Under the pieces are notes generated by a model that was not told where the DNA came from, did not search any database, and worked only from the letters and a program-made list of their open reading frames with translations. A DNA stretch of 64,000 nt from IMG/VR virus record IMGVR_UViG_3300028833_000101, positions 40,703 to 104,702 of that record, one strand, 5' to 3'. The DNA is from a virus. Lineage: Duplodnaviria > Caudoviricetes. Positions 5,501 to 64,000 of this stretch are shown here, one piece after another (within the stretch, counting starts at the first letter, position 1; each line of letters starts with the position of its first letter). The position numbers were made by a program, and so were the translations under genes.

Positions 5501-7089
5501 GCTGAACTAATGATCATGAAGTTACAATTGGCGGCTTTAAAGTAGCTAAAACTACCTTATCTGCTGGCACACAGGGCTCAAATAGTAGTATTTATATGTC
5601 TACTGAAATGCCAGCAAGTAGTGATACTCCAACAACTTTATTTAGTATTGGCTCAGCTTTTAAAATTGACAGCTCAGGTAGTGCAAAACTTAATGGTACA
5701 CTGGATGCCTATGCAGGAAATATTGGGGAGTTTAGTATACATGGTGGCACCCTTGCCAATAGTAATGTTAAGTTAGGATGAAGCGGCATTCAAATGACCA
5801 ATGGCGGCAAACTATCTATTTCAAATAGTAATGATAGTAACACATTTACTATGGGTCTTACAAGAAAGGAGCAACCAGCGCTTTTATCTGAAGGTGATTT
5901 TTATCTAACTTCTAATAAGTATGATACTGGTTTTATGATATCCCCCACTGGAAGTGCTGGAAGTTCAACTATTGAATGCACAGTTAAAGTTACTGGTACT
6001 GCTTGGGGAGGCGGGTCATCAAATAAGGTTAAAATTACTGCTAATAAACCGTTTTTAAAAACAAAAACATTTACTATTAGCTATACTGGTTATGATTTTG
6101 GAACAGTAACACGTACTACATATCTAACGATATATGCTAATGCAACTGAAGGTGAAGTTAGTTTTGGTGGTTTATGGTACCTAACTTCTGCTACAGTAAG
6201 TGGGTATACTAGCGCAATTAATCGTGATGGTACTGCTACTTTTAACTTAACTCAATCATTTGAAACTGGCGCAACATGTTATGCATTGGGCAGCATAATT
6301 CCAAAGCCATACCCAAGACGTACTTTACATGTTTTTAAATCTGGAGAAGGTGAGATTCATATAACACCACCTGATTATGCAAGCCCAACATATGGCACAG
6401 ACTGTCATATGAGAGTTGGAAGATATGGTGAGGAGTTTGACGGATATTCTTGAGGCGATAGTAGCACTTGGGGCACCAACTCTATGTATATTACTAAACT
6501 AGATTGGTTTGGTGATACATCTTGAGTAGGTGCAACTGTTTGGTTAGCCGATAAAGGCTCCGGTTGGGGAAGTGAATGAGGAAATGTTTCAGCTGTCACA
6601 GAAGCTAATACTGTAACATATCTTGGTACATCTAGTAATAGATGAACATATATTTATGGAACAAATATAAACTGAACTAATGCTTATGGCACAAATGCTG
6701 CAACTATATCTGATCGTCGTGTAAAAACAAACATAGATTATGATATATCTAAGTATGATATACTTTTTGATAACTTAAAGCCAGTTAAATATAAATACAA
6801 AGATGGCGATTCAAATAGAACTCATCTTGGTCTTATTGCTCAAGATGTTGAACAAAGTATGCTAGAAAATGGTATATCTAGAAAAGACTTTGCAGGATTA
6901 ATTATTAGAGATGATACTGGACTAGGATTTGATAGTAAAACTGATACTATTAAAGATGAAGATAAAATAGAATATGGTATACGCTATGGTGAGTTGCATG
7001 CATTAGAAATTAGACAAATTCAAATGCTAAAACAAGAAATAGCTGAATTAAAAGCAGCATTAGCTGAATTACAAAATAAAAATGTATAA
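2524..7089 (+). CDS. Baseplate spike/central fibre protein: N-terminal gp5/gpV-like OB region, C-terminal peptidase S74 intramolecular chaperone (about 1521 aa)
   Basis: Six track ORFs share one frame and are separated by TGAs; N-terminal GDVVELAFDNNELDSPVVIG; C-terminal SDRRVKTNI...LKPVKYKY...HLGLIAQDVE plus coiled coil. Confidence 0.75.
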
Positions 7090-7095
7090 TATAAT

Positions 7096-7980
7096 ATGAG
7101 ATTAATCCATGCATTTACAATACAAAGAACCTATAAAGCTGATGGCGTTTCTGGTATTTTAGATTGACTATTAACACCTTATTATATAAAAAAAGCATAT
7201 CCAAACAGCACTTTAGTGTTATATACAAATATGCAAAGTGCACAAATACTGGGAGAGCTGTGATCACATATTAAAAGTGCCTATGATGAAGTTTATGTTG
7301 ATTTGCAGAAAAATAATAAAGAAATTTTTAGTTATCCAAAATTTGAAGCCATGTCAAAAGAGCTTTGGTCTCATGGTACCGATTTTATAATGTTAGACAA
7401 TGATTTATATATATTTCCAGGTTTTTTAGAAACAATTAAATCTAATTATTGTATCTATTATGCAGAACCGTCACATTATATTGCTTGGTATCATTCAATT
7501 ATTAATAATGAATACGCTTGCCTTCATGCCCCAGATTGATTTACATGAGATATTACCCCATATAACTGTGCAACAATTAGAATTAATGATAAAGCTTTAT
7601 TATTAGAATACTTAAAAGTTTATAATACTGTACAAGCAGAAAATTTAAGTGAATCTAAAGGACATAAAGCAATGATTAAAGAGCAATGGAGTCTTGGTGA
7701 ACTACTAAATAAACATCAAATAACACCACAAAGTTTGTTTAATAAAAAATATTCTTTTCATAAAGGTTGTATAAAACCACTAAAAAAGCCAGTAGAGTTA
7801 ATACAATTACAAGAATTATTGTTAGCAAAACTTCGTCCAAATACATTTAAAGTTTTTATTAAACTGTTTAATCATGATGACTATTTTAAGTCAGATCTTA
7901 GTGTAGATAATTGCTTTAAAAATATTGATCAAGAATATAAAGATGGATTGCTTGCCCCAATATTAGAGCAATCAAAATAA
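7096..7980 (+). CDS. GT-A-fold glycosyltransferase-like protein (DUF6734-like), TGA-recoded
   Basis: Joins ORFs 7303 and 7672; LYTN...YPKFEAM...DFIMLDNDLYIF (DxD)...YNCAT...EQ pattern. Confidence 0.5.
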
Positions 7981-7986
7981 AAATTA

Positions 7987-8011
7987 AAAGAAGACAGTGG
8001 TCTTCTTTTTT
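7987..8011 (+). terminator. Intrinsic terminator
   Basis: aaagaagac-agtg-gtcttcttttt hairpin with U-tract after the gene. Confidence 0.7.
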
Positions 8012-8036
8012 ATTTAATAAATTTATTAAATTAATT

Positions 8037-8045
8037 GCTAAATTA
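8037..8045 (+). promoter_or_regulatory. Putative phage late promoter GCTAAATTA (also at 18808, 23289, 23371, 27711, 43773, 45029, 63370)
   Basis: The same 9-mer recurs in intergenic DNA, usually just after a terminator and ahead of structural/TGA-containing operons; no -35 box. Confidence 0.7.
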
Positions 8046-8064
8046 TATGATTGCGAGGCAAAAT

Positions 8065-8448
8065 ATGAGGTCTATTAAATTTCCAAAAATGTTTAATACT
8101 AATAGCACAAATGTCTGAAAGTCTTCAGAGTATTTGGATGCTACCAAACAAAATACAATTCTTCTCTTACATACTGAAAGAGGTGAACTTTTTGGTGATC
8201 CATATTTTGGCTTATTATTAAAACATTATTTATTTGATCAAAATAATTACATTTTACGTGATGCTATTATAGATATTATTTATACACAATTAGCAATCTT
8301 TATTCCTCAAGTTAAAGTTCGTAGAGAAGATATTTCTATTGTTCAAGATAAGCAAAAGGGAAAACTATACTGTGAATTTTCTGGAATAAATCAAATCGAT
8401 TATACACATAATACTTTTAATTTAGTATTATTAAATGAAAACGAGTAA
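8065..8448 (+). CDS. Baseplate gp25/GPW-like protein
   Basis: LLHTERGELFGDPYFGLLLKHYLFD motif; ATG at 8065 in frame through one TGA. Confidence 0.85.
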
Positions 8449-8463
8449 GGAGTATTATAAGCA

Positions 8464-11400
8464 ATGATTACACAACAAGAATTAACCGCTGTAGAATTAT
8501 CTCCAACTAAAAAAGATTTTTATCAAATCTGAAATGAGTTATTAGAAACAGCTGCAAAACTTAGCGAACGCTGAGATCCAGCCAGCACAAATGAATCTGA
8601 TCCTGGTATAGTATTACTTAAAGTCTTAACTGCCGTTGCAGATAAGCTTAATTTTACTATTGATGCAAATACATTAGAAGCATTTATGCCAAGTGCTGCT
8701 CAAGAAGAGTCTATGCGTAAGCTTACAGAAATGCTTGGTTATGATATGAAATACTATCAATCAGCAACTGTTGATGTTAAAATTTCTTATAATGGCACAA
8801 ATAAAGATGCTATTCCTAATATGCTTTTAATTGATAAGTTTACTAATATTAAAGATATTGATGATAGCATTAATTATGTAACATTATCTGATGTATATTT
8901 AAGCACACATGGTTCATCTAAGGTTGTTAGCTGTATAGAAGGTGAACTAGTTGAGTGCGAAACAGATGATAATAATATTATCTCTATGATGCAATTAGAT
9001 GACAACCACCGTTATTATCTTCCAGAAACACAAATTGCAGAGAATGGTATTTTTATTATTAATGTTACTGATGGCGTTGAAAGCGACCCATGGAAAAAAG
9101 TAACAAATTTAAATGTACAAAATATTGGGTCAAAAGTATATAAATTTGGCTATGATTCAAAAGAAGGCTTGCCATATATTCAATTTCCAGAAGATATTAG
9201 CACAATTATTGAAGATGGCTTAAAAATTAAATATCTCAGAACAAAGGGTATTAATGGTAATGTATCAGTCAATACCCTCTGTAAGATGGAACAACCAGCC
9301 AGCTGGTCTGCTGCTAAATCTGCTGAAGGCTCAGCTGAGAATGATAAAGACTATTATAATGTTGATAATTATACAGTTACCAACATCTCAGCAAGTTCTA
9401 ATGGAACTGACATTGAATCTATTAATGATGCCTACAATAGTTATAAAAAAACGATCGGTACATTTGACACATTAATTACTTGCAGAGATTATATGAACAA
9501 AATCTATCAGATGACTACTGATGATGTTTCTACTACCCCACTTGTTAGTAATGTTATTGTTTCAGACATTAGAGATGACATTAATAAAGCAATGACTCTT
9601 TGCACTTTTACTGAACGCGGCATTGAGTATAAAGCAATGGCTAAGCCAATTGACACACATGATGCAATAACTATTACTGAAAGCCGCTATAGCGAATTAC
9701 AACCAACTGAAGAGCTATTAGGCAATCTTTATAAGGTTGTTGATAATACAGATCTAACAAGAATTAGGTTCTATGCTCGTTGTATTTTTAACGGTAACTT
9801 ATTCATGCTGGTTAAAGTTAATGACACTGAGCTAACTCACTTTGATTTAGTTTTATATCCATTTAGAAATACTTATGGTTTAAATAGTCGTGTTGAATAC
9901 GTTAAATCTTTTAAATACGATGATTCAAATTTATTAGAGATTAAGGATAACCTTGAAACTAATAAAACACTTTCACATAATTTTATTGATCCAAATCTTG
10001 ATGATATTGCTTGTATTAAAAACTATTTAAAACTTAAAGCAAAAATTACTACTGTTAGAAAAGTTGGGGCTTTGGAACAAGCTGAAATTTTAGGTAAGGT
10101 TTACACTGAAGTTTATAAAAATTTTAATCTTAGAAAGCTAGACTTTGGAGAAGAAATCCCTTATGAAAGTATTTTAGATGTTATTACAAATGCAGACCCA
10201 AGAATTAAAAATGTCAGCTTAGAAGAACCAGAATTAGCTACTAAGTTCTGCACTGTTGGTGGTGGTGAATATGAAACATCAACTAATAGCAATAAGTCTG
10301 ACCCAGCATCAATTGCTTTTGCAACTGCTGGTGATAAATACTTTAATAAATTAGTATTAAATAATGTTCTTGCTGGACGTGTGCCACTATTTAACTATGA
10401 TGAAAATTTTAAACCAGATTATAATGAAGTACAATATCCAGGTTGGCAAGAAGGCAGTGGTTCATCAGCAACTACAAAAACATACTCATTAATTTATCCA
10501 GCTGCTGAAGATAGCGGAAGAAGCGCTGCAGAACAAAGACCAATTTATAGTCTATCATCTGAATTTTTAATTAAAGCTGGTGCCAAAAATATTAAATTAA
10601 ATGATAATGAAGTTGTTCAATTTAGATTACCAAATCTTAAAACAGTCAAAACATATCCAGCATATGTTAATTATTACATCAGTCTAAATGATAATGCCAA
10701 GAGCATTCCAGCAATTCCTGCTACTTTCCAAACATTATTACGTTTTATGGAAGATGGCTATCCAGATGATGACCACAAAAAAACAAGTTGGGAAAGATAT
10801 ATTAATTCTGGCTTGGGCTCTGTTATGACTGAATTTGCACCAGGTGAAATTACCTCTGACAACTTTGGTGATAAAAAGAGCAAATATCATGCTATCTTTA
10901 CTTATAGTAATAATAGATATACTTATTTAAAAGAATTTACAACTGCTACTAAATATTATTATGCGAAACTTGATGCTACTACTGTGTTTACTTGGGACAG
11001 CTGGATTAGAAGTTTAATAAATACTGAAACAGCAACTAATTTAGTTACTTCTGATGCTCTCGATACAAATGAATCTGGGGTAGCTACTCCACGTACTCCT
11101 TTAAATGGTATTTCAAGAAATGGCTTATATGTTAAAATTTCTACATCAAAGTCAAATAAATTTGGTGCATTAGTTGACAATCAACATACTAAATATAAGC
11201 TTTTTGATAGACCTCTTTCTGCTGCAAGTGATGTTGATTTATTTACCACTGGATATTATGTACAAAGACTTTGATCTGTAAGAAAATATGATTCAGCTGA
11301 AACTGAATTACCACCAGAAACTACTAACCATACAACTGACGGCTTGGGCCAAAATAGCGAATATGTTGGTATTACAGCAAATGAAGAATATACTCTTAAA

Positions 11401-13857
11401 GCTGGTGAGTATTTGTTAATCAACTATACACAATCATCAAATGAAGATGGCACCGAACAAAAAACAAAAATTAATAAATTCTATGGCCCAACAACTATCA
11501 TTAAACCAAATTTTGAGCTAATTGATAGTAAAAAATATAGTAAATCCCATAATTATACGAAAAAAGATGGCTACAGCTTCTTAGAGTACGACAAATCTCC
11601 AGATGGTTTATTTACATTAGGTGCAAATGAGCAAATTGAAATTAGAGATTTTGTGCAAGTAAACTTAGATGAAATAAGCACAAATATTTATTGGGAAAGA
11701 AATGATGAAATCCCAGACTATCGTAATAGAATTATCTTTGAATTTACTGAAGAGCCAGTTTATTTTACAGATAATACATATAAAACAAAATCTGATACTC
11801 CTACAGAGTATGTTATATATACTGCCTATACATTAAAAGATGGTGAATATTTCTATTACACCGACCAAAATAAAAATGATATTGCATATTATGGCTCTGG
11901 AACCAAAATTAAGAAAACAGTATATACTCCAACTATTTATAAATTTGCTAGCGATAATGATATTAGCACCGATGAGATTGCTTCAAATGGCTTAAATGCA
12001 GCAATTCCTTGGAGAGCATTTGACTTCAGCAAATCTGGCACTCAAGATAAAAAATTAGTCATAACAGAATATCAATATATTAATTTAACAAAAGGAAATA
12101 TCTTAAATTCTATTACTGCATTAAATTCAACTTCTAATGAAGAAGAACAAATTGAACGTGCTCTTGATAATGAATTTAGAGATATTAAATCAGCCACTTA
12201 TACTATTTTAACTGATCCAGAAGATGAAGACTCTGGCAAATCATCCTCTTTACCTGTTGTAAACTTTGATACTAATACTCACTGGCAAGTAAGAACAAAA
12301 CTTGAATTCAATGCAAGCCAAACAACAGTTCAAACATTACACAGCACAGAAGATACTCAAGATAGTATTACACTTTGACACAAAAATGATACAGATCCTA
12401 TCGTATTAACACCACATAATAATGTGCCTCTTTCAATTAAATTAAATAAGCTTATTCAGAGCTCTCGTGATAAAGTTGATGTTACAACCAAAAAGTTTGC
12501 AGAAGATGGACATTTAGAAGAAGAAATTCCAGATTTACAATTAAAAGTCTTGCAAATCGCAGATATTCGTGATGATAATGGAAATGCTGTAAGCTTAAAT
12601 AACTTTGGTGACTCCTTTACTAAATTATCATTCAATGATGTAATTAATAATGGCGATGCAGCTATGACTACTTTAAATGCGGTCATACCAAGCGACTGCT
12701 ATGGTTTAGTAATGTTCTATAATGTTAAAGTAAATGCAAGTACTGATGCTGCAGCTATTAGATTCATTAAGAGCAACCCAGCTGATGCTACAATTCCTCA
12801 AGTTAAAATCTTTAATCACTGGAATCCTAATAACACAGTACCAAGCGGTGTTCCAGTCTCTGCAGACGCTGCAAAAGGCTGGTGGGGAACTGCTGATACT
12901 GGAAAAATAAATCCAGATAACTATGGAAAAATTTATACTAAAAAGACATGAGCAGTTCGTGCACAACCATTTGCTCCAGTAACTGAAGACGAATATAATA
13001 GAATGAAAAATGAAGGCAACTTATATCGTGAAACTGAAATTTCTGTTTCACCAACAGCTAAGCCTTTATATCGCTATGATTCAACAAATAAAAAATATTA
13101 CAAATATACTAAGGTTGAACAAGATACTGTTTGGTCAGAAAGCGCTATTTATGGTCATTTAACCAGTGCTACTGCTGCACCAGCCGTTGAAAGTGATGAA
13201 TTTGAAATCTTAGATAAAGTTACCTTTGAAAGTTTGCGTAATACTGATTTATATCGTAGAGTAGAAGCAGATGTATCTGCTGATATTGAAATTCGTGCAG
13301 ATGAACGTTATGACTATGATACTCACAGATTATATCAATATTCATCATATGTGAACACGGCTTGGAGTAGCAGCTTTAGTGATTATTCATTTGGTCAATT
13401 ATTAGACCATGGTGGAGATACTGTGCTTTACCAATTAAGAGAAGGTATTAATATTGTTCAATTAGATAGTTCTTGTAAAATTGAAATCTATCCAGACAAC
13501 TTAATTGCTGACACTGTTATTCTAAGCTCATTAGATATTATTAAAAAGGCTAATGCACTAACAGGCGTAAGTGCTATTAATAAAAAATTAGCTTATAAGA
13601 AAATTGATAAAGCAACTGTAGATGAACAAATTCTAAGTGATATTAATTATTTAGACATTTATCAACAATTCTATTATAATAATGTTATTTCTAATTCATC
13701 TAGTATTGATATGAATATTAAAGATGATGAAGACACCATGGAGTATCCAATTAACTGGTACGACCGCAATAACATTAATAATAAATTTGTAGTCTCAGAA
13801 ATTGATGCTGAAGAGATGATTAAAAATGTTGTTATTTCAAAAGCTTCAAGGAGTTAG
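8464..13857 (+). CDS. Large baseplate wedge protein (T4 gp6/baseplate J-like, about 1797 aa)
   Basis: N-terminal KDFYQI(W)...ER(W)DPASTNESDPGIVLL...LGY with conserved Trp as TGA; four track ORFs in the same frame; ends at TAG. Confidence 0.85.
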
Positions 13858-13863
13858 TTTACA

Positions 13864-14610
13864 ATGATAAAACTACAAGACTATACACCAGACATTTATT
13901 ATAAGGAGTCAAGGGACTTCCAATTTATTGGACGTCTCTTTGACCTTGTTTTAAACTCAGTTAAAACAGAAGCAGATTTGCTTTATAATATTCCTGTTAG
14001 TGATAATTCAAATGATAAGCTTTTAGATTTACTTGCACTTACATTAGGATTTAAAGCAAACCATCATTATAATACAAATCAACTACGTGCAATCTGCAGA
14101 GTTTTTCCTGAAATTTTAAGAAACAAAGGAAGTATTCAAGCAGTAATTGTAGCTTGTAATGCACTATTTAGGGCTGAGGGTTTAGAGCAAGCCTTAGATT
14201 ATGATTTTACTAAAAATCCTAACAATGATAAAACTGAGCTAAATTTATATATCCCACAAGAATTTGGAGATATTACATTAATTAATGATTTACTTACTTA
14301 TATATTACCGGCTGGAATGAGCTGTAATTTAGTTAAAGAGTTAAGAATTAATGAGCAATCTATGACTGAAATTGCTGTAGAACATATATTTAAAATTTAT
14401 AAACATACTGATCCTACAAGTTCAGAAGAACAAACAATTTTCTACGACAATAACTTGCTTGCTAAGATACCACGCCTTGTCAATGATCCATCTGATATTG
14501 ATGAATCAACCGGTATTGTTACTTTAAATACAGGTGAAGTTATTAGAAACTTAGTAAAAGATAATGTTGGCTTTATTGCTAATGGCATTATTTATAAACC
14601 AAAACAATAG
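13864..14610 (+). CDS. Baseplate/tail protein I-like (P2 gpI family)
   Basis: LLDLLALTLGF...ILRNKGS...YILPAG motifs; follows the J-like gene. Confidence 0.7.
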   Translation: MIKLQDYTPDIYYKESRDFQFIGRLFDLVLNSVKTEADLLYNIPVSDNSNDKLLDLLALTLGFKANHHYNTNQLRAICRVFPEILRNKGSIQAVIVACNALFRAEGLEQALDYDFTKNPNNDKTELNLYIPQEFGDITLINDLLTYILPAGMSCNLVKELRINEQSMTEIAVEHIFKIYKHTDPTSSEEQTIFYDNNLLAKIPRLVNDPSDIDESTGIVTLNTGEVIRNLVKDNVGFIANGIIYKPKQ

Positions 14611-14624
14611 GAGAATAGCTAGAT

Positions 14625-15308
14625 ATGGGAAGAAAGAAAAAAAGTACTATTGAGACACCCGTTATACCGCCTCAGCAAGATATAAAAGCTATTGGTACTC
14701 AACCAATTGGTTATCAAGGAAAAGTCTCTATTAAAATTCAACATGGTAATAAAACTATTTCTACTAGAACTTATCATAACAGCGGAATGCCATTGTTATT
14801 TAAGTTTTTATGTTCTGCCTTGTCTGGTGATTTTTTAGATGGCATTAGACCATGTAAAATTAAACTCTTCTATTATCCAGAGGCTGAAAAAGGAGTTACT
14901 CCAGAAGAATTTAATTGGGCCTATGCCTTTGAAGCTGATGCTGAAAATAAACCTAAAGGAATTACTCCATTTATTACTTATGAAACTACGCCAATTGTAA
15001 AGCGCGTTGCAGATGTAGTAACAAAAAATAGTAATAATGGATTAACATATCATTATGAAACAACTTTCCACTTCAGGGTTCCATTTGCATTAATTTCTGA
15101 TACTACCGTACATATGATTGGTATTTATCCAAATAATGCTTATTATGGTGCAGAGGAAGATGTTTCCGCCTATTATTTATTTGTTGATGAAGAAACTGGT
15201 AAATTATGGGAACCACTTGAATTAAAAGACGTTGCTGGTAATTTTAGTATTATTGTTGATTGAACAATGGCATTAATGAACAAGCCAGTCACAACTGTAG
15301 ATGCTTAA
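14625..15308 (+). CDS. Tail fibre attachment/baseplate protein
   Basis: Extends past TGA at 15261 (IIVD-W-TM) to TAA at 15306; position between gpI-like and fibre genes. Confidence 0.55.
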
Positions 15309-15330
15309 TATAATATAAAGGAGTTAATTT

Positions 15331-53315: not shown

Positions 53316-53316
53316 G

Positions 53317-54184: not shown

Positions 54185-54275
54185 TTCTTGCAAAAATTAA
54201 GTAAATTGTGTAAAAAACAGTTTACTTTTTTATTAAAACGTGATATAATTATAATAGAGAGAGGTTAAGAGAACT

Positions 54276-54778: not shown

Positions 54779-54791
54779 GAGGTAAGAAAAA

Positions 54792-55034
54792 ATGGAACAA
54801 AGCATTTTAGATCAAGAAGAATTAAACAAAAGAGCCGATGAAGTATTTGACTTAAGTATCGGCGATTATGTCTACGATGTGTTTGTAGAAGATAATGGCA
54901 CTGTCAGAATCCCAATGCGAGAACTTAGTGATTTAGACGGCGACTATGTTGACTTCGATTATAAACCTGATATGACAGAAAGACCAGAAGCATTAGATTA
55001 TCTAATGGGAAAGAGAGACGATTTCAATGACTAA
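54792..55034 (+). CDS. Early hypothetical protein
   Basis: GAGGT RBS. Confidence 0.7.
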   Translation: MEQSILDQEELNKRADEVFDLSIGDYVYDVFVEDNGTVRIPMRELSDLDGDYVDFDYKPDMTERPEALDYLMGKRDDFND

Positions 55035-55290
55035 GATTTATATTGTAGTAGATGCTTGTAGCGGTGAAGATTATAGCACTGATGATCCAACCATTCTTTG
55101 TGTGGATACTAATGAAGAACGTGCAAAAGATTTCTTTGAGGAAGAAATTGAAAACTGGGAAGACGGAATGACTAACTTCGATTCCAATACCACAGAGCAT
55201 TATGGTGAAACCAAGTTAGTTTATGAATGCACTGACTATGAAGGTGACTCACATAGAGTAATGAAATTAGTTGAAAAAGAAATTCAATAA
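55027..55290 (+). CDS. Early acidic hypothetical protein
   Basis: ORF track. Confidence 0.7.
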   Translation: MTKIYIVVDACSGEDYSTDDPTILCVDTNEERAKDFFEEEIENWEDGMTNFDSNTTEHYGETKLVYECTDYEGDSHRVMKLVEKEIQ

Positions 55291-55361
55291 AAATTAAAAA
55301 AGGGTTTACAAAAAGCCCTTTTTATGTTATAATATATGTAGAGTAAAGAGAGGTAAAAAGA

Positions 55362-55994
55362 ATGGGACAATATTATTATCCAACAATCCTTAGGGAAAAG
55401 AATAAAAGATTTTATAGTGAGGAATTTTTTTCTCATGATTATCACAACGGCTTGAAACTAACAGAACATAGTTATTGTGGAAATAACTTTGTTGAAACTG
55501 TTATGGCACAACTATTTAATAAACCTGGTCGACTTGCATGGCTTGGCGACTATCATGAGAAAGGTGACTTTGCTAAGTTAAACTCAGATTTGCCAGACAT
55601 TTTAGAAAAAAGATTTTATGAACACTACAAGTGTTTTGTTACACCGGGTTGTGAAGAAGACTGTAAAGGTAAGCATTTAAGATACTATAATAAGCCAGAA
55701 GAAATAACAGAAAGAAAAGGTAGATTTATTATTAACCATGACAAACACTGTTATATTGATATGGTAGAATATGAAAAGAATAACTTATCTTGTTCTGAAG
55801 ATGACGATTGGAAATTCCATCCAATTCCACTATTAACCGCAGTTGGCAACGGTCGTGGTGGAGGAGACTTCTCTGGTATCGGTGAAGAAGATATTGGTTG
55901 CTGGGCTGGAGATTTACTTGAAGTGCAATGTGCTAGACCAAATGGCTATCGAGATGTAACAGCAGACATTAACTTCCAAGAGAGTTATTGCTAA
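55362..55994 (+). CDS. Phage hypothetical protein (MGQYY...LKLTEHSY...HPIPLLT...GxWAGD)
   Basis: Promoter plus RBS; motif set I recognise from uncharacterised phage proteins. Confidence 0.75.
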   Translation: MGQYYYPTILREKNKRFYSEEFFSHDYHNGLKLTEHSYCGNNFVETVMAQLFNKPGRLAWLGDYHEKGDFAKLNSDLPDILEKRFYEHYKCFVTPGCEEDCKGKHLRYYNKPEEITERKGRFIINHDKHCYIDMVEYEKNNLSCSEDDDWKFHPIPLLTAVGNGRGGGDFSGIGEEDIGCWAGDLLEVQCARPNGYRDVTADINFQESYC

Positions 55995-56064
55995 AAAACA
56001 AAAAAGGTGTTTACAAACATCTTTTTTTGTGTTATAATATTAGTAGAGAGTTGAGGTAATTACT

Positions 56065-56514
56065 ATGAACAAAAAGAATATTGTTACAAAAGAAAACATT
56101 GCTAAAGTTGCTGATTGGTTAAAGACAGCTTGTGATGACTTTGCAAATAATGATGCAAGTGGTTGCTATAATTTCCCACTATCTGATGATTTAGTATTAG
56201 CAGTTGGTTGGTCTGACGGCTATGATATGGCCGATACTGATATTATTAAATCTAAAGAAGGCCAAAGACAACATGGTTCTTGGGTTTGCGGTTGGGCAGT
56301 AAATGCAGCAGTTAAAGTTAGAAATGACTTCGATTGTGCTGACTTCGATATGTTAAACTATCCTTGCTATAATGATGGCGAATGTTGGGACAGTGGAATT
56401 TCTATGAAACCAAATCAAACTCGTAGAGAGTATCGTAGAGACGCTCGTTGGTTCTTAGAAACATTTGTGTCTATGACAAATGCTCACAAGAGAGGTGAAA
56501 TTAGTTATGAGTAA
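56065..56514 (+). CDS. Early hypothetical protein
   Basis: Promoter plus RBS. Confidence 0.75.
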   Translation: MNKKNIVTKENIAKVADWLKTACDDFANNDASGCYNFPLSDDLVLAVGWSDGYDMADTDIIKSKEGQRQHGSWVCGWAVNAAVKVRNDFDCADFDMLNYPCYNDGECWDSGISMKPNQTRREYRRDARWFLETFVSMTNAHKRGEISYE

Positions 56515-56677
56515 AGAAGAGACATATACAATTATTGTTCATTTTTCTGGACATGAAGATCAAGTTCGACATGGTGTTGATAAATTAAATGCTAGTATAA
56601 TTCCCGCTGAATTCGAAATAGCATTCCCAAAAGAATTCAAGAGTGGAAAGATGAGTATTGAAGTAATTAAAGAATAA
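56507..56677 (+). CDS. Small early protein
   Basis: GAGGTG RBS. Confidence 0.55.
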   Translation: MSKEETYTIIVHFSGHEDQVRHGVDKLNASIIPAEFEIAFPKEFKSGKMSIEVIKE

Positions 56678-56737
56678 ATTAAATAACCCGTTTACAGAAG
56701 CGGGTTTTTGTGTTATAATAATAATGAGGAAAATAAT

Positions 56738-57274
56738 ATGATTAAATTAAAACAAGTTAGTCCTGAAAATGTTTGGTATGAATTCGAAGACGAAGTTGAC
56801 TTTGATCAATACAAAGATAAAATGGTTATCACTGGGAATAGAGACTTCAAGTCTATCGGTGATGATACTTTAATCAGTGTTGTTAAAGGCGATTACTATG
56901 ATGAAGATCAAACTTTAGTCGAGAATCCTGATGGTAGTTGCTACGAAGATACTATCGGATATGACTACGAAACAGCAGAAGAATTAGCAAAGCTTTCTGG
57001 TAAGAAAAACTGGGTGGAAGGCGACTTCCGCGGATACTCACAAGGCGATTGGCAAACTATCTGGTTCGTTAAAGATGAAGTTACTCAAGATGAAATTAAA
57101 TACATGGAAAACTTCTACATGGGCAAGATGAGTGAATTTCATGATGAAGATATGTGTTGCTACTATGTGCCCGATGATGTAGTATGGAAAGGCAAGAAAG
57201 AAATTTGTGACTACCTTGGGCTCAACCCCGATGACACAGAGATTTATGATGAAAATGAAAATTTAGTTGAATAA
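56738..57274 (+). CDS. Early hypothetical protein (RGYSQGDW motif)
   Basis: Promoter plus GAGG RBS. Confidence 0.75.
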   Translation: MIKLKQVSPENVWYEFEDEVDFDQYKDKMVITGNRDFKSIGDDTLISVVKGDYYDEDQTLVENPDGSCYEDTIGYDYETAEELAKLSGKKNWVEGDFRGYSQGDWQTIWFVKDEVTQDEIKYMENFYMGKMSEFHDEDMCCYYVPDDVVWKGKKEICDYLGLNPDDTEIYDENENLVE

Positions 57275-57330
57275 ACTATTTACATTTTCTATTTTTCGTG
57301 TTATAATATATTTGAAGAGAGGTAAGAAGT

Positions 57331-57735
57331 ATGGGCTTTAATAAAATTAGAACCATTAGAGTTAGCGAAAGAGTATTTGATATTGTCTGTGAGGCTTTAG
57401 ATAATGAGGCAACAGAAAATTATGTTAAAATTTCCGGATACTTAGAATGCTTTAACAATTGCAGAGAACAAGGTTATGTCCTTCATGTTGATTCAGTTGA
57501 TTGGGACAATCCTAATAAAACTAAAAAAGATTTATGTGTTTGGGCTTTTGAAGCAAGAAGTTCAGATGAGATCGTCGTAAGTTGGCAAACTGAATATCCA
57601 CACAACGGAATGTTCAGCGAAGAAACTTATAAAGAACGCAGAAAATATTTCCATTATGATGAACTTCAAAAAGCAGCAGACTTTATTATCGATTTAGTTA
57701 AAGAACATTTTGCCAATGAATTCAGAGGTGAATAA
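57331..57735 (+). CDS. Early hypothetical protein (NCREQGY motif)
   Basis: Promoter plus RBS. Confidence 0.75.
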   Translation: MGFNKIRTIRVSERVFDIVCEALDNEATENYVKISGYLECFNNCREQGYVLHVDSVDWDNPNKTKKDLCVWAFEARSSDEIVVSWQTEYPHNGMFSEETYKERRKYFHYDELQKAADFIIDLVKEHFANEFRGE

Positions 57736-57736
57736 T

Positions 57737-58072
57737 ATGAAAGACGAATTTGACGAATTATTAGAAGAATTAAATTTAGAAAACTTTGGTGAAGACTTCG
57801 ATGTTAAGCCAGCTATATATCAAGTGTGGATGTTAGGCTACAATGAAGATGAAGCTATTACTGATTATGAAGTAATGGTTAATGAATCTAAAGACGCCGA
57901 ATATGCAGTGGAATATGCTAAGAAATTCGTAGAAGAAAAACGTTATGAGTCTTCAGCGCCATTCCCAGAAGATGTTGCTTACATCGAAATATTAGTCGAG
58001 ACTGTTGTGGATTTTGAAGATCACACAGAAAATGTCGGAACTTTATTTACAACAACTGTAAAAGTGAAATAA
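57737..58072 (+). CDS. Early acidic hypothetical protein
   Basis: GAGGTG RBS. Confidence 0.7.
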   Translation: MKDEFDELLEELNLENFGEDFDVKPAIYQVWMLGYNEDEAITDYEVMVNESKDAEYAVEYAKKFVEEKRYESSAPFPEDVAYIEILVETVVDFEDHTENVGTLFTTTVKVK

Positions 58073-58130
58073 ACTATTTACAAATTAATTTTTACATGTT
58101 ATAATATAAATGACAATGGAGGACTGATTT

Positions 58131-58415
58131 ATGGTAAAGTCAAAACATTTAGGAAAGAAATTTGGTCGCTGGACTGTTACAAGAATTAGCAGAGAACGTG
58201 ATGGACACTATCGTTTCTATTTAACTAGAAAGACAAGCGATGGCGCAATTAAGACTGTTGGTTTAACAAATGTTACAATGGCAAGATTAGCTCGTGGTGA
58301 AACTAGCATCACAACTTTGTTAAAGAACAAACAATTCCAAAGAAACAAATTCCCAAGCAGATCTTATAGAAACTCTGTTTGGTATACTTACAACACAAAC
58401 GGTAGCTTAGAATAA
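58131..58415 (+). CDS. Basic early protein (GKKFGRWTV motif; possibly DNA-binding)
   Basis: GGAGG RBS; N-terminus resembles the G..FGR.TV motif of HNH/AP2-associated domains. Confidence 0.65.
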   Translation: MVKSKHLGKKFGRWTVTRISRERDGHYRFYLTRKTSDGAIKTVGLTNVTMARLARGETSITTLLKNKQFQRNKFPSRSYRNSVWYTYNTNGSLE

Positions 58416-58443
58416 CTATCGGTATCGAAAGGAGGAAGTTGCT

Positions 58444-59343
58444 GTGGCAAGTCAAACATTTAACAACTTCAAGAATTACGCAAATCAATTAGAGAAAGAA
58501 CTTGGTATTAAATATGATGCTAAGCCTTATAAAGATACTATCAGGGTTATGCTTGATGGTTTTTGCAAAGCAATGGATGAAGGCGATGAACATCTTAAGA
58601 ACTTATATATCAGTGGTTTAATCTTACGTCATTGGGATAAAGTAAAGAAACTTGCAGATAGTTGCCCTGGCATCGATCTTAAAGGCGAAGAGTTCGTCGA
58701 CTGGGTTTACGAAGCAATTATGCTTGCTTGTGAATATCGTAAATGGCAAAAAGACGAAAGTGTCAATGCTCAACAATGTATCAATCAATGTATTGAAACT
58801 ATCAGGGTTAGACACTACTATGAATATAACTTAGACAAACACAAAGCGAACTACAATACTGTCTCTTTAGAAACCCCTGTTGGCGATGGAGACGATAATG
58901 GTGTTCAAAAAACTTTGATGGATACTATGCATGATGAGAATGCGGAAGAAGCTGCTAGAGTAGCAGAAAGTAATAACGCTGCTCGACACATCGTTCAGAT
59001 GTTTATCAACAAAAACAGAATTGTCGAAGCAATTATCATGGACATCATTGCTTTTGGTGATACTGAAAAAATTACTAAACACATTAAACGTGGCATTGAC
59101 GAAAATGGTGAGGCTTACAAGTATATAACTTACACACGTGAGTTCTGGAAGTTCAAAGCAGTCCAACTTCTTTCAAACTTGCCAGAAGACTACCAACAAT
59201 ACTTCCTTGAAAACTATTTAGTTAATACAGCAGCATTAGATGCAGCTTTAAACGTGCTTAGAAAGGCCAATAACAACAAATTATACCGTGAGTTAGATAA
59301 AAGCCTATCTGCAGCAAAAGTAATCCTACAAGCGTCTATGTGA
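58444..59343 (+). CDS. Putative phage-encoded sigma70-family factor
   Basis: LILRHWDKVKKLA...EEFVDWVYEAIMLA (region 2-like); TVSLETPVGDGDD (region 3-like); AAAGGAGG + GTG. Confidence 0.6.
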   Translation: MASQTFNNFKNYANQLEKELGIKYDAKPYKDTIRVMLDGFCKAMDEGDEHLKNLYISGLILRHWDKVKKLADSCPGIDLKGEEFVDWVYEAIMLACEYRKWQKDESVNAQQCINQCIETIRVRHYYEYNLDKHKANYNTVSLETPVGDGDDNGVQKTLMDTMHDENAEEAARVAESNNAARHIVQMFINKNRIVEAIIMDIIAFGDTEKITKHIKRGIDENGEAYKYITYTREFWKFKAVQLLSNLPEDYQQYFLENYLVNTAALDAALNVLRKANNNKLYRELDKSLSAAKVILQASM

Positions 59344-59422
59344 GCTGAAAATAATAATTAAAATAAAACAACCTTCCAAATTGGGAGGTTTTCATGTTGT
59401 ATAATAAAGTGAGGATTTGATT

Positions 59423-60151
59423 ATGTGGTTAGATATAATGAGCCAGTATAATACACTTCAAGTAAATATCAAATTGGCAAATTTACTTGGGTTAGAAGTT
59501 GCTACTTATTGGGCGGCATTGATGGATGTGTATGCGAGAGTAGTGAATAAATATAAAGATGAGTTAGAAGCGAATTCAGGATATTTTGAACTCGACAGAG
59601 ACTATATTACTAAGAGAACGACATTACAGTTAGACAAACAGTTAGAGATCGATGCAGGACTCGGTAAACTTGGTGTGCTACAACATCGTAGCGAAAACGA
59701 ACTGAATTGGATCACACTAGATGTAGAAAAGCTTTGTGCGATCTTAGTAGATGACAGTATCGATGCAATCAGAGATGTTCAACGCGTTTCTAAACTTAGA
59801 CGAGAAGATACCGCTCGTGCCAAGAAAGCATCGGTTAGAATTAACTTAGTCGCAGCACTAAAAGAAACTGATCCAGATGTGCTTACTGCTTACAATAACT
59901 GGATCGATGCACTGTTAGAAGCTAAGAAGCCGATTACTAGACAAGCTTTGGATATATACCAGAATAACTTAAACAATTATACTGATAATAAACAAGCGAA
60001 AATTAAAATTCTTGAGATTGCGACAACAAATGCTTACACTGAATTTGCATGGTCTATGAAGATTTACGAAAAAGATTATCGTGGCAATGGAACATTTATT
60101 GGTGTAAAGCAAAATAGAACTAGCGGAATTGATCCGAATTCAGGTTTTTAG
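59423..60151 (+). CDS. Putative replication initiator/replisome organiser (winged helix N-terminus)
   Basis: VNIKLANLLGLEVATY...GYFELDRDYITKRTTL...Q...L...GVL pattern. Confidence 0.6.
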   Translation: MWLDIMSQYNTLQVNIKLANLLGLEVATYWAALMDVYARVVNKYKDELEANSGYFELDRDYITKRTTLQLDKQLEIDAGLGKLGVLQHRSENELNWITLDVEKLCAILVDDSIDAIRDVQRVSKLRREDTARAKKASVRINLVAALKETDPDVLTAYNNWIDALLEAKKPITRQALDIYQNNLNNYTDNKQAKIKILEIATTNAYTEFAWSMKIYEKDYRGNGTFIGVKQNRTSGIDPNSGF

Positions 60152-60163
60152 GAGAAATTTAGT

Positions 60164-60457
60164 ATGAATGAATTTATAGCAAGACGATCATTAGAAGAAG
60201 ATGCACTTCTAGAATATATTTCGAAAGCAAGAGTGCTAGATGATCTGTATCATCGAACAGGTGAGTTAGAAGAAACTATTGAAGCGATGGATAAAAACAT
60301 CGACGATGTTGAGGAAACTGGTTTAGATGAAATTGTAGAAGCGATGTGCAAAGCTCGCAATGCACTAAATTTAGAAAGACTTGACCTCGAAATTCAAATT
60401 CACAAGTTAGAACTTTGGTTGGCAGAATTTGAAAGGATAAGACAAATAACCCGATAA
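60164..60457 (+). CDS. Coiled-coil hypothetical protein
   Basis: AGGAG RBS. Confidence 0.7.
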   Translation: MNEFIARRSLEEDALLEYISKARVLDDLYHRTGELEETIEAMDKNIDDVEETGLDEIVEAMCKARNALNLERLDLEIQIHKLELWLAEFERIRQITR

Positions 60458-60499
60458 ATTCGGGTTTTTATTTACGAATTTAGTGTGGTTAGCGGAGCA

Positions 60500-60790
60500 G
60501 TCTAGCGTGATGATCAGGTAACTGATCTGTAACATGTGACTGTAACTTGTACGATGATCTGTAACTGATCTGTAAAATTTGTACGGTCTAGTGAAATCCG
60601 CACCGGCATCCTGACACACTAAACAGATGAATCAGGATACTGATCAGGCTTTCTAGTGCGATGTACAGTAACAGATACAGTAACCAGTGCGATGTATAGT
60701 GACAGACAGTAACGATACAGTACTGTGTAACTGGATTTAGATTCACTAGAACTTGAAAACAGGTTGATTTCGTGCATGTGTATGTGCGTT
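60500..60790. repeat. Short degenerate tandem repeats (tgatctgtaac / gatacagtaac)
   Basis: tgatctgtaa x3, then the complementary-sense acagtaac x4. Confidence 0.65.
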
Positions 60791-60866
60791 TCTTTTTAAT
60801 TAAAAAAAGTATTTACAAATCTTTAGTATTGTGATATAATATATATAGAGAGTGAGGAAAGTTATT

Positions 60867-61070
60867 ATGAAACCTATGACAGTTAAAAGATTAAAAGAAC
60901 TTTGTGAAGAACAAATTAAAAAAGGTAATGGAGATAAGATTGTTGTCCTAAGTAATGACGATGAAGGTAATGGTTATCACGAATGTTATTACGAGTTTAC
61001 CGAAGACGTTGCTGGTAATGATTTATGGGGAAGTATTGAAAACCCACAAAGTAAAATAATTCTTGGTTAG
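60867..61070 (+). CDS. Early hypothetical protein (SNDDEGNGY motif)
   Basis: Promoter plus RBS. Confidence 0.7.
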   Translation: MKPMTVKRLKELCEEQIKKGNGDKIVVLSNDDEGNGYHECYYEFTEDVAGNDLWGSIENPQSKIILG

Positions 61071-61082
61071 GAGGAACTAATA

Positions 61083-61286
61083 ATGACAAGAGAAGAAAAA
61101 TATAAGTTAATCGAATTACTCGAAAAACTTAGAGACGAAAGAATCTTAGAAGTTGCGAAAGACTACGACTTAACCGAAAGAGAAGTCCGTGAAAAGTTAT
61201 GTAGAGAACCTGAAGAAGTCTATGAGATGGATGATGGTGATAACTTACTTAACGGTATTGACATTGTGTTAGGTGTCTTAGAATAA
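61083..61286 (+). CDS. Early hypothetical protein
   Basis: AGGAGG RBS. Confidence 0.7.
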   Translation: MTREEKYKLIELLEKLRDERILEVAKDYDLTEREVREKLCREPEEVYEMDDGDNLLNGIDIVLGVLE

Positions 61287-61372
61287 AAAAGTTTAAAGTA
61301 GACGTAAAAAAACGTTTACTTTTTCTTTTAAACGTGATATAATATTTATAGAATAAAGAGAGGTAAAAAACA

Positions 61373-61825
61373 ATGCAAGGACCAAAAGAAAAATATAATG
61401 CTGAAAAAGTATTAGAAAGATTAGAAGCAATGATTGAAAGAGGTTGCTCAAGAGAGATTAGACAAGTCTATGATGAACTATCAATCTTCGACTGGTGGCC
61501 AGAAAGATTAACTATCACTCACATGAAACAAATGAGATCCTTCTTGAGAGAAGCAATCAAGTTAGGTTATACTGGTTATGTTTGCTTTAAAGTCGGTGCT
61601 TCTGGTTGCGCTAATGGAATGTGGGCACACAAAGAAGAAGGTAAGGTAGAAGGTAAAGACGTCTACTCACCAGATGGCGATGCTATCTACAGAAGTTTTA
61701 CACCTGATTATACTTATTGGTCATTCAATAAGAACGGTAAGTGGCTTCCAGATGGTGATACTCGTGGAACATATGACTCACTCAAAACTGCAAAGATGCT
61801 TGAAGAAGCACTTGCAAATGCCTAA
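61373..61825 (+). CDS. Early hypothetical protein
   Basis: Promoter plus RBS. Confidence 0.75.
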   Translation: MQGPKEKYNAEKVLERLEAMIERGCSREIRQVYDELSIFDWWPERLTITHMKQMRSFLREAIKLGYTGYVCFKVGASGCANGMWAHKEEGKVEGKDVYSPDGDAIYRSFTPDYTYWSFNKNGKWLPDGDTRGTYDSLKTAKMLEEALANA

Positions 61826-61903
61826 ATAAAAAAACTAAAAAGAGGTAAAAAACTATTTACTTCTTTTTTATTTTGTGGTATAATATATGTAGAGGATGAG
61901 GAT

Positions 61904-62056
61904 ATGAGATACAACGTTAAAATTAAATTAAATAAAGATACTATCTACGAAGTTGAAGTTGAAGCTGATAATGAAAAAGATGCAATGTGCTTCGCTTATG
62001 ATCAAATGGAAATGGATACTTACGCAGAACCAACTATGATTACGGAGGCTAAATAA
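61904..62056 (+). CDS. Small early protein (VEVEADNEKDA motif)
   Basis: Promoter plus GAGG RBS; 50 aa. Confidence 0.55.
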   Translation: MRYNVKIKLNKDTIYEVEVEADNEKDAMCFAYDQMEMDTYAEPTMITEAK

Positions 62057-62057
62057 A

Positions 62058-62378
62058 ATGAAAGCAAAAAACTATAATCAAGTATTGAGAGCTCGTGGTT
62101 ATAAAGCGAGAGAGCTTAGCGAGTATGAAGGAATTTGTATTTACGAGAAAGTTCATAAGTTTAACAAGATAGTTTGCTATGTTAAAAAAGACTCACATGG
62201 CAAAGGTCAAGAAATGACTTTCAATATCTATGGAACTATGACTACACCAAAAGATATGGTTGAGTTCAAAGAGCAAGAGTTTGATAGAAGTTATCTTGCT
62301 AAAGAAGCAAATGCAATTCACGATGCTTTTGAAAAACTAAAAGAATTAAAAGCCCCTAAACATTTATATTGTTTCTAA
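62058..62378 (+). CDS. Early hypothetical protein
   Basis: GGAGG RBS. Confidence 0.7.
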   Translation: MKAKNYNQVLRARGYKARELSEYEGICIYEKVHKFNKIVCYVKKDSHGKGQEMTFNIYGTMTTPKDMVEFKEQEFDRSYLAKEANAIHDAFEKLKELKAPKHLYCF

Positions 62379-62447
62379 AAAATTACATTAGCCCATTTAC
62401 AAAGTGGGCTTTTTGTGTTATAATATATATGTAAAGAGGATAAGAAT

Positions 62448-62744
62448 ATGAACTATAAAATTAAACAAATTAAAGACTTAGAAAATTGTGACTATGCTTT
62501 CGAGCACTACGATTGGTGCAAAGATAAGATCAACTTGAACGACTATGAAGTTGTATATGAAGGCACAGTATCAGAAGAAAATGCTTCTAAAGGCGATAAC
62601 TATGCTCTTGAAATGTTGTTCACAAAGTTCAATATTGCTCATCCAGAAGACTATAGAGGACACAGCTTATCAGTTTCTGATATTGTAGAACTTGATGGCA
62701 AGAACTACTACTGCGATGCATTTGGCTGGGTCGAATTAAAATAA
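62448..62744 (+). CDS. YodL-like domain protein
   Basis: DYEVVYEG...LEMLFTKFNIAHPEDYRGHSLSVSDIV...YYCDAFGW. Confidence 0.85.
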   Translation: MNYKIKQIKDLENCDYAFEHYDWCKDKINLNDYEVVYEGTVSEENASKGDNYALEMLFTKFNIAHPEDYRGHSLSVSDIVELDGKNYYCDAFGWVELK

Positions 62745-62814
62745 AAAAAGTATTTACAAATTAAATAAATAGTGTTATAATATAAATGTAAAGAATAAGA
62801 GGTAAATATATTAT

Positions 62815-63093
62815 ATGTCTAAAATTGTTAATCTTACAAAAGTTCAAGGTTGTTATTCAAAAGAATTAAGAGAAGCAACTTATGGAATTAAGTTATGCTT
62901 AAGAGAACCATCTGTTTCACTTCAAGATATGAAGAATTATGTTGAAGCAGTTATTGACCCAGCAAGTATTGATGCTGAGGCTAAAAAGAGATTTAGAAAA
63001 AACCTAAGCGAATGTAAAACAAAACAAGAAGTTGACCAACTATGTTATGATGCAGTTGTTCACGGAATGTATTATCGTAGAAAAGAAAGTTAA
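62815..63093 (+). CDS. Early hypothetical protein
   Basis: Promoter plus RBS. Confidence 0.7.
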   Translation: MSKIVNLTKVQGCYSKELREATYGIKLCLREPSVSLQDMKNYVEAVIDPASIDAEAKKRFRKNLSECKTKQEVDQLCYDAVVHGMYYRRKES

Positions 63094-63150
63094 TGAAAAC
63101 GGCTTAATTTCGCCGTTTTTTTATTGTATAATATAATGGAGGGTTATATT

Positions 63151-63366
63151 ATGAAACTCGACGAAGGAAAATTAACCTTAACAGAAACTGAACTCGCTGA
63201 AGTTAAAAGAGCAAATATGATGGCAAGTCCAAGTATTGCTGGTCTTTATTTACGCAGTTTTCTTAAAAATAAAAATTTAGTTGAAAATTTAGAAACACAA
63301 CCTGATGTAAACTTTTATACTGAATGTATTCAAGCATACAGAAAAAAGAACTATGAAGTTATTTAG
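63151..63366 (+). CDS. Hypothetical protein
   Basis: GTATAATATAAT promoter plus GGAGG RBS. Confidence 0.65.
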   Translation: MKLDEGKLTLTETELAEVKRANMMASPSIAGLYLRSFLKNKNLVENLETQPDVNFYTECIQAYRKKNYEVI

Positions 63367-63404
63367 TTGGCTAAATTAATTGCATAAAGGCAGGTGAGAA
63401 TAGA

Positions 63405-63593
63405 TTGGCTTGTAAAGTTAAACTTAGAGAAGACGAAACGACCGATGCTTTATTGGCTAGATTCAAAAGTCTAGTAAAGAAGTCTAACATCTTAGCTGAC
63501 GTTAGAAAGCATGAGTTCTTCTTAAAGAAAAGTTTGAAAAGAAAACGTAAGTCTGAAGAGGCTCGTAAGTTAGCAAGAAGAAAGGGCAGATAA
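63405..63593 (+). CDS. rpsU: Phage-encoded 30S ribosomal protein bS21
   Basis: KVKLREDETTDALLARFK..VKKSNILADVRKHEFFLK.S.KRKRK.EEARK; 62 aa; TTG start. Confidence 0.88.
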   Translation: MACKVKLREDETTDALLARFKSLVKKSNILADVRKHEFFLKKSLKRKRKSEEARKLARRKGR

Positions 63594-63949
63594 ATTTCTG
63601 CTTTTTTATTTACAAATTTTTAGTATATGTTATAATGTGATCATGATGAATTTAGTGCAAGATGAAATTTAGTGCGAAAGCTACAGATCAGAAGCTGCTC
63701 TTCTGCAGCTGCATCGATCTGTATTCTAGTGTGAATCACTACAGATCGTGGATACAGATTCATCTGCGATGTACGATCATGTCTAGTGAATCAGGCTACG
63801 ATGTTGATGAAAACAGTACGATTCCGTGCGCTAGATAGTGAACAAAAACATGATCTGCAAAGTTTTGTTCGCAATTTCATGTAGTAAACTGTTACAAAAA
63901 TTTGCAACAAAACGTTTACATCGAAACACTAATGTGATATAATATAAGT

Positions 63950-64000
63950 ATGGAAGTAAAGATAACTAAACTTAACAACTTACAAATATGGCCAACTGGT
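63950..64000 (+). CDS. Partial early gene (3'-truncated)
   Basis: ATG directly after a sigmaA promoter; open to the window end. Confidence 0.4.
   Translation, partial: MEVKITKLNNLQIWPTG

Follow-up and report, generated by a model that had tools for sequence, protein, structure and literature searches.

Small RNAs with anti-Shine-Dalgarno-like motifs and separate accessory cassettes in a TGA-recoded phage of the ruminant gut

A 64,000-nt stretch of a tailed-phage genome (the window; bases 40703-104702, the right-hand 64 kb, of the 104,702-bp IMG/VR virus record IMGVR_UViG_3300028833_000101, here G000) holds TGA codons read as tryptophan (Trp), a gene for ribosomal protein bS21, three small RNAs (sRNAs) with motifs like the anti-Shine-Dalgarno (anti-SD) end of 16S rRNA, an RNA ligase, a KTSC protein, a short basic peptide and several genes with leaderless-type starts. 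The question raised by this locus is whether these parts work together to reprogramme initiation and termination of translation, as a first, sequence-only reading had proposed. Comparison with nine relatives shows the listed parts of this supposed takeover to be separate accessory cassettes in a hypervariable early region and not one system. The new element is the small RNAs, above all sRNA B at 47.3 kb; the existence of the anti-SD-like RNAs is borne out, with abundant expression of one of them. Overall, we consider it likely that G000 is a Jade-like recoded phage with a two-class gene programme, a kit-based code switch, separate cassettes, and sRNAs that pair with ribosome-binding sites (RBSs).

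G000 is rated 46% complete (CheckV), has a GC content of ~32% with all genes on the + strand, and is of ruminant gut origin, its DNA being present in sheep, goat and cattle gut runs. It is classified as a myovirus because PHROG matches to the major head protein, portal, large terminase and tail sheath were found upstream of the window. A head-protein search gave 66 related loci, seven near-complete genomes of 201-233 kb among them, and whole genomes of nine relatives (G001 and G004-G011) formed the comparison set. The window is part of a half-assembled jumbo myophage of ~220 kb that resembles the published Jade clade.

Distribution of the parts among relatives

The genetic code of each genome was tested by aligning standard-code homologues to it and counting stops deep inside good alignments. 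TGA was paired mainly with W in G000 (16 sites), G001 (23), G008 (42), G005 (51), G009 (10) and G004 (11), and the same test gave 0-3 sites in the standard-code G010, G006, G007 and G011. The family sample is therefore six recoded genomes, G000 counted, and four standard-code ones. In a four-protein tree the standard-code genomes lie in one part, and one or two code changes suffice.

Among the parts it is bS21 that tracks recoding. It was found in G000, G008, G005, G004 and weakly in G009, which is five of the six recoded and none of the four standard-code genomes (one-sided Fisher p ~0.02), but not in G001, the slot of which holds two other, unrelated early genes; the bS21 loci are non-syntenic among relatives. 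Since one or two code changes are enough for the tree, this link is not independent evidence. The KTSC protein is present in G000, G001, G008, G005, G009 and the standard-code G007, and the ligase in G000, G001 and the standard-code G010 and G006 (44% identity) while absent from the recoded G008, G005, G009 and G004. Only G000, G001 and G008 have the basic peptide, and the sRNAs are confined to the nearest lineage apart from a looser analogue in G008. The whole early region is hypervariable, only about 5 of its 53 genes being family-wide. The proposed co-occurrence across recoded and standard-code relatives thus holds for bS21, a late-promoter cassette that follows the recoded members, and fails for most parts, which assort independently; the ligase and KTSC protein have no tie to recoding. 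Joint reprogramming of initiation and termination is contradicted by the independent distribution of ligase, KTSC protein, peptide and sRNAs among the nine relatives.

The protein parts themselves were for the most part correctly recognised. bS21 scored 53.7 bits against PF01165 (cut-off 27; 1.7e-14; residues 4-60 of 62) and 48.3 against TIGR00030 (cut-off 28.95; 6.3e-13), which confirms the gene, and the motif upstream of it would place it in the late class, as had been read. The early RNA ligase and the KTSC protein were likewise confirmed by profile matches. The former, with 57.6 bits against a cut-off of 27 for PF09414, belongs to the RNA ligase family and carries K41 of motif I in EKIDGTN, with EGLVLV and KCKCK downstream, but has no equivalog match, scores for TIGR02306 and TIGR02307 being far under their cut-offs. 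The latter is a full-length member of PF13619 (66.2 bits against 25; profile positions 1-58 of 58). The supposed ArfA/BrfA-like peptide, of 58 amino acids (aa), is a real open reading frame (ORF) with a Lys/Arg/His-rich C-tail, but the likeness could not be recovered: its sole Pfam match was a sub-threshold DUF7230, and NCBIfam at E <= 1 and the rescue factors of the PDB at E <= 10 gave none. Judged by its sequence, it is an unrelated small basic protein. The other early proteins are mostly without family assignment.

Small RNAs with anti-SD-like motifs

sRNA B (coordinates of all features in Table 1) combines a 5' stem, a UUCG hairpin and a terminator with an invariant GACAAUUACCUCCUUUCA, and the core of its terminator loop, CACCUCUCU, is kept. 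Four copies were found, in G000 and as homologues in G001 and the loci L004 and L200, and an 18-mer holding ACCUCCUUUCA is invariant among them and single-stranded. RNAalifold on three copies gave 19 pairs, 7 of them changed on both sides. Visual comparison shows GAGCC/GGCUC replaced by CCGCC/GGCGG in the inner terminator stem and GAGGCG/CGCCUC by GAGGCA/UGCCUC in the 5' stem; the UUCG hairpin covaries too, and the G-U pairs are compatible with the minus strand only. It is on this covariation that the case for structure rests, because the minimum free energy (MFE) fold of the full RNA was no better than shuffles (z = -1.7). An ORF on the + strand across sRNA B was ruled out by indels of 2, 4, 18 and 20 nt between the homologues. 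The L200 copy has an extra CACCUCC and GCCUCCUU upstream, and in G008, at the same distance and in the same orientation from the Zn-ribbon gene, there is a TTGTATAAT promoter, UUACCUCCUUUCA in a hairpin loop, and AAUCCUCCUUAAU. With its promoter and terminator, conserved structure and exposed C-rich seed, sRNA B has the sequence features of a trans-acting SD-masking sRNA, and a literature search gave no described phage RNA copying the 16S tail.

Single-sequence nhmmer searches with the RNAs gave G000 and G001 only. A covariance model of the 3' domain of sRNA B returned the four known copies and one match in G006 (E = 0.05), which was rejected on reading. Exact 17-, 18- and 20-mer scans of IMG/VR and the JGI metagenomes gave mostly chance matches or complements of ordinary RBSs, the only true homologues being L004 (on the same contig as L194) and L200.

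The RNA at 47.3 kb is abundant. Over 47336-48002 the RNA contig depth had means of 280 and 147 in two metatranscriptome runs of one sheep sample, compared to 0-15 in the other 667-nt bins of 44-64 kb and to a flat 45-53 in the DNA run, and the RNA contigs were 10 to 100 times deeper than those of the neighbours in both runs. The depth summed at 47357 was 1162, of which 283 belonged to the G001-type allele, both alleles being seen in the RNA. One RNA contig ends at 47538, where it is joined to Illumina adapter. An RNA 3' end at ...ACCUCCUUUCA, suggested by the uncovered 47262-47335, was dropped since multiple alleles break the assembly and a hole in a contig is no proof.

The two remaining sRNAs, A1 and A2, lie close together at 23.2 kb. 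A1 has an unpaired AUCCUCCCUUC and UUCCUCC in its terminator loop, and the 18-nt terminator loop of A2 holds GCCAUCACCU. Against shuffles the folds gave z-scores of -4.2 for A1 and -3.3 for A2, with the CCUCC and CACCU motifs unpaired. Both are ~99% identical in G001 (A2 identical) with diverging flanks, and the G001 changes in the first hairpin of A1 keep pairing through G-U on the + strand. CCTCC occurs 10 times on the + strand of the whole 104.7-kb contig, two of these 29 nt apart at A1/A2. In Rfam, no family was found in the window at gathering level and A1 had no match; an E-value scan of both RNA regions gave a mir-5595 match that was discarded as merely a perfect hairpin, and nothing relevant otherwise. 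The three anti-SD RNAs read from the sequence are thus borne out as three non-coding units with anti-SD-like motifs in unpaired segments. Just upstream, a ~170-nt element at 22981-23150 is precisely absent from G001, whose sequence resumes at the A1 promoter; nhmmer found no second copy of it, and it may represent an RNA module that is mobile or optional.

Recoding, gene classes and the code-switch kit

In-frame TGA was found in 22 of the 30 late-block genes, the long frames of 1-36.7 kb being open only with TGA as sense, and every gene ends in TAA or TAG. By our own gene calls, from which all TGA and TGG counts were taken, TGA makes up about half of the Trp codons of the late block and is nearly missing from the early block (Table 1). 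With TGA at conserved Trp positions and concentrated in late genes, G000 is a code-4 phage with a late bias. Staged recoding, as first read, therefore stands as regards the late bias (80:72 against 6:113 for TGA:TGG), but not as regards a fully code-neutral early half, since in four standard-code relatives the W of HKK..WE[IL]P stands where the SNF2-type helicase has TGA. In the early half TGA is also present in the Zn-ribbon gene, at 48326, and twice in orf 44221, at 44251 and 44437, where one of the two aligns to W in G001. Among the relatives, G004 has 52% GC, yet is of the same family, and its TGA recoding is light. The tail sheath (G000 33156-34787) has 41% identity to that of G001 compared to 81-88% for neighbouring structural proteins, which points to mosaic replacement.

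Promoters and SD sequences fall into two classes as well. An early-type promoter, TTTACA-N17-TGTATAATATA, is present in more than 20 copies, mostly at 36.7-64 kb. A late-type motif, GCTAAATTA with T-rich DNA before it, occurs at 18 sites on the + strand and one on the - strand and in most cases precedes a structural gene. The late-type motif is found on bS21 and A2, the early-type promoter on A1 and sRNA B. In the proposed programme, host-type (sigma-70-like) promoters would drive many tiny early units in which TGA is almost never used, and the phage-specific GCTAAATTA motif would drive the late genes with TGA as about half of their Trp codons. When early genes (window 36754-63593) were compared to late genes (window 1-36703 plus G000 1-40702), a GAGGT SD was found in 18 of 48 early and 2 of 61 late genes (p = 6e-6), AAGGAG in 1 of 48 and 22 of 61, and GAGAGG in 8 of 48 and none of 61. 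The consensus is (A)GAGAGGU(A/G)A for early genes and AAGGAG or GGAGG for late ones.

Several leaderless genes had been proposed, and the corresponding sequence pattern was found at six starts (7096, 18423, 26757, 45198, 45680 and 51382), which may therefore be leaderless: they read TATAATATAAT, 0-5 nt, ATG, with the -10 element ending 5-10 nt before ATG and no SD. A 299-aa core gene at 58444-59361, shared by all nine relatives, matches the C-terminal part of RpoD weakly in NCBIfam (E = 0.006) and nothing in Pfam; its product may be a phage sigma factor that serves the GCTAAATTA promoters. A fourth small late transcript may arise at 45029-45090, where a short hairpin and a T-run come directly after a late-type GCTAAATTA motif and no ORF is present. 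Immediately 3' of bS21, at 63594-63940, an early-type promoter is followed by ~300 nt with no credible ORF; this segment is GC-richer, has repeated ACAGATC motifs and is 95% identical to G001 compared to ~84% in its flanks, and may be a further non-coding RNA.

The code switch in this family would be brought about by a suppressor tRNA-UCA, a Trp-tRNA synthetase (TrpRS) and release factor 1 (RF1). Such a kit is already described for phages in which late genes are recoded and replication genes variably so (Borges et al., 10.1101/2021.08.26.457843). Among the complete recoded relatives, a tRNA with anticodon UCA was found in G008 and G009, a class Ib synthetase (TrpRS) in G005 and G008, and a class I release factor in G005 and G004, that of G004 with an RF1-type PAT motif; the standard-code relatives have none of the three. 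No recoded relative examined has all three together, and no suppressor tRNA adjoins the TrpRS and release factor genes of G005. ARAGORN found no tRNA in the G000 contig or in G001. A distance of 7.6 kb separates bS21 from the suppressor tRNA and TrpRS in G008. In G000 no complete gene follows bS21 before the contig end, G000 and G001 break at homologous points, and the kit of this phage probably sits just past the contig end in the unassembled half. The two assemblies are independent, each rated 46% complete, and have homologous start as well as stop points, the G000 end being window position 64000, which suggests a shared assembly break (at a tRNA array or repeat, for example) or a true genome end. 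Arrays of ~30 tRNA genes were found in G004 and G008, and a transfer-messenger RNA in three recoded relatives (G004, 115653-116037; G005, 209640-210045; G009, 228755-229128).

The likeness to the Jade-type phages (10.1101/2021.08.26.457843), drawn from their published description, lies in the size of ~200-230 kb, the animal gut, Firmicutes-like signals that rely on SDs, a use of TGA for Trp that centres on structural and late genes and varies in replication genes, and the kit in relatives; the G000 contig differs in having no kit, and ribosomal proteins and sRNAs are not mentioned in that paper. A bS21 scan of bacterial genomes gave only distant Hydrocarboniphaga matches and hence no clue to the host. 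Phage-borne bS21 tied to the late programme was reported by Chen et al. 2022 (PMC9723584), who proposed that it biases initiation to phage messages. The hosts of their phages are Bacteroidetes, in whose ribosomes the anti-SD is hidden, and bS21 lies among structural genes, whereas here the SDs are strong and bS21 is a single cassette in the early region, with a late-type motif and a patchy distribution in the family.

Table 1. Coordinates of the features discussed, in window positions
Feature	Position	Strand	Details
Late block (structural, tail and accessory genes), TGA = Trp	1..36703	+	30 genes, 80 TGA and 72 TGG
sRNA A1	~23176..23288	+	Early-type promoter TGTATAAT at 23164; three hairpins
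sRNA A2	~23298..23352	+	Late-type motif at 23289; one terminator hairpin
Early block, many short units, nearly TGA-free	36754..63593	+	53 genes, 6 TGA and 113 TGG
RNA-ligase-family nucleotidyltransferase, 221 aa	40369..41034	+	PF09414, 2.3e-15; KxDG
Gene pair in early block behind late-type promoter	43773..44601	+	GCTAAATTA at 43773; second gene (orf 44221) with two TGA
Leaderless-type start, example	45185..45200	+	TATAATATAAT-N-ATG, sequence pattern
sRNA B, in origin-like gap	47262..~47547	-	Own early-type promoter and terminator
SNF2-type helicase with in-frame TGA	48634..50349	+	TGA at 48772 (codon 47); Pfam SNF2-rel_dom, Helicase_C
Basic-tailed protein, 58 aa, leaderless-type start	51382..51558	+	Homologues in G001 and G008
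Stand-alone KTSC-domain protein, 65 aa	52201..52398	+	PF13619, 2.2e-18
Ribosomal protein bS21, TTG start	63405..63593	+	Late-type GCTAAATTA at 63370-63378

Proposed role of the RNAs

sRNA B is proposed to act by pairing with RBSs. Its single-stranded ACCUCCUUUCA copies 10 contiguous bases of the 16S 3' tail and would mask strong canonical SDs, and the AGAGAGGU(A/G) leader common to many early genes finds its complement in the terminator loop, CACCUCUCUCUU; the two motifs together could shift translation between the SD classes. Duplexes of the loop at or below -12 kcal/mol were predicted for 17 of 48 early leaders compared to 7 of 61 late leaders. Because loop pairing favours early leaders and the invariant motif complements the canonical strong SD, RBS masking by SD class is the role suggested for sRNA B.

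Such a shift would be an RNA counterpart of the shut-off of early messages by RegB/RegA in T4, in which shut-off goes by SD class (PMC1702504, PMC3014915). In both, distinct early and late SD variants permit class-specific silencing, but the T4 effector RegB is a protein nuclease cutting GGAG in early SDs, whereas here GAGGU marks the early class and AAGGAG the late one, and an RNA is the proposed effector. An independent promoter and terminator, exposed C-rich seeds and predicted RBS pairing are shared with two groups of known RNAs. These are the SD-masking C-rich sRNAs of Firmicutes (RsaE, RoxS and RNAIII) and the RBS-masking phage antisense RNAs c4 of P1/P7 and sar of P22. There is no sequence or Rfam relationship to any of them, and the RNA described here differs from the RsaE and c4 types in its 10-nt contiguous copy of the 16S 3' tail (ACCUCCUUUC) and in a second motif that fits the leader of a whole early-gene class and not one target.

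Several observations weigh against a Jade-like phage with a kit-based switch and RBS-pairing sRNAs. Neither suppressor tRNA, TrpRS nor release factor is found within the 104.7-kb contig of G000, itself 46% complete, and the GAGGT-rich early zone is clear in some relatives only (G001, G009, G011 and G007). nhmmer and the covariance model found sRNA B in none of the other relatives, and recoding does not depend on the sRNAs, since other recoded relatives lack them. The promoter of sRNA B is of the early type, so the RNA would have to accumulate or be processed for it to shut off early genes. Pairing with targets is an in silico prediction, and short C-rich seeds have many partners; the RNA data are assembled contigs of one sample that do not give ends, strand or timing.

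Other explanations must be set beside it. That bS21, the three RNAs, the peptide, the ligase, the KTSC protein and the leaderless genes form one co-adapted system reprogramming initiation and termination with the TGA switch would fit the presence of all parts but the ArfA likeness in one genome, the confinement of bS21 to recoded members and the fact that the sRNA motifs touch the same SD/anti-SD interface as bS21. It is nevertheless very improbable in view of the independent assortment among the nine relatives, with the ligase in standard-code ones and no bS21 in the syntenic slot of the nearest relative; furthermore, the peptide is neither ArfA- nor BrfA-like, KTSC is tied to translation by name only, and the tree permits a single loss of recoding together with bS21. 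Still harder to credit is the absence of any staged switch, the host natively using code 4 and the early scarcity of TGA being an effect of composition or expression level. A suppressor tRNA is indeed found neither in the G000 contig nor in the heavily recoded G005, and the helicase and a few other non-late genes do contain TGA, but 6 TGA against 113 TGG in 53 early genes, compared to 80 against 72 in the late ones, tRNA-UCA, TrpRS and RF1 in recoded relatives, which would be needless in a code-4 host, and close relatives on the standard code all speak against it.

For the 47.3-kb RNA itself, a function in replication or defence evasion, as an origin transcript or primer, a regulator of the helicase operon or a decoy, with the anti-SD motifs incidental (as inverted relics of early leaders, for instance), appears unlikely. 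The RNA does fall within a conserved, dyad-rich stretch of 1.4 kb that is non-coding, resembles an origin and ends just upstream of the Zn-ribbon and SNF2 genes, and its + strand loop resembles an early RBS (AGAGAGGTG), as from an inverted duplication. What such a function leaves unaccounted for is that the 18-mer with ACCUCCUUUCA is invariant and the loop core CACCUCUCU kept while the stems around them covary, that the same 13-mer is kept in the otherwise unalignable RNA of G008, that the fourth allele, L200, gains two CCUCC motifs, and that the RNA has its own promoter and terminator. A further extension of RBS pairing, in which the 47.3-kb RNA and the two 23.2-kb RNAs are a phage-made stand-in for the 16S 3' tail that absorbs canonical SDs and the AGAGAGGU leader and redirects ribosomes between message classes, maybe in concert with late bS21 at the same helix, is decidedly unlikely on our estimate; if true, it would add a layer of translational takeover, carried out by RNA, to a phage that also switches code.

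Late-gene recoding, phage bS21 and the tRNA/TrpRS/RF1 kit are known already, and the bundle as first framed adds little to them. The confinement of bS21 to TGA-recoded members of this family is a hypothesis for larger genome surveys. sRNA B is among the few predicted anti-SD phage sRNAs with structural covariation plus transcript evidence from natural samples, and if it sorts messages by SD class (AGAGAGGUAA-led compared to AAGGAGG-led) it would represent a new kind of viral control over the timing or capture of translation, one based on RNA.

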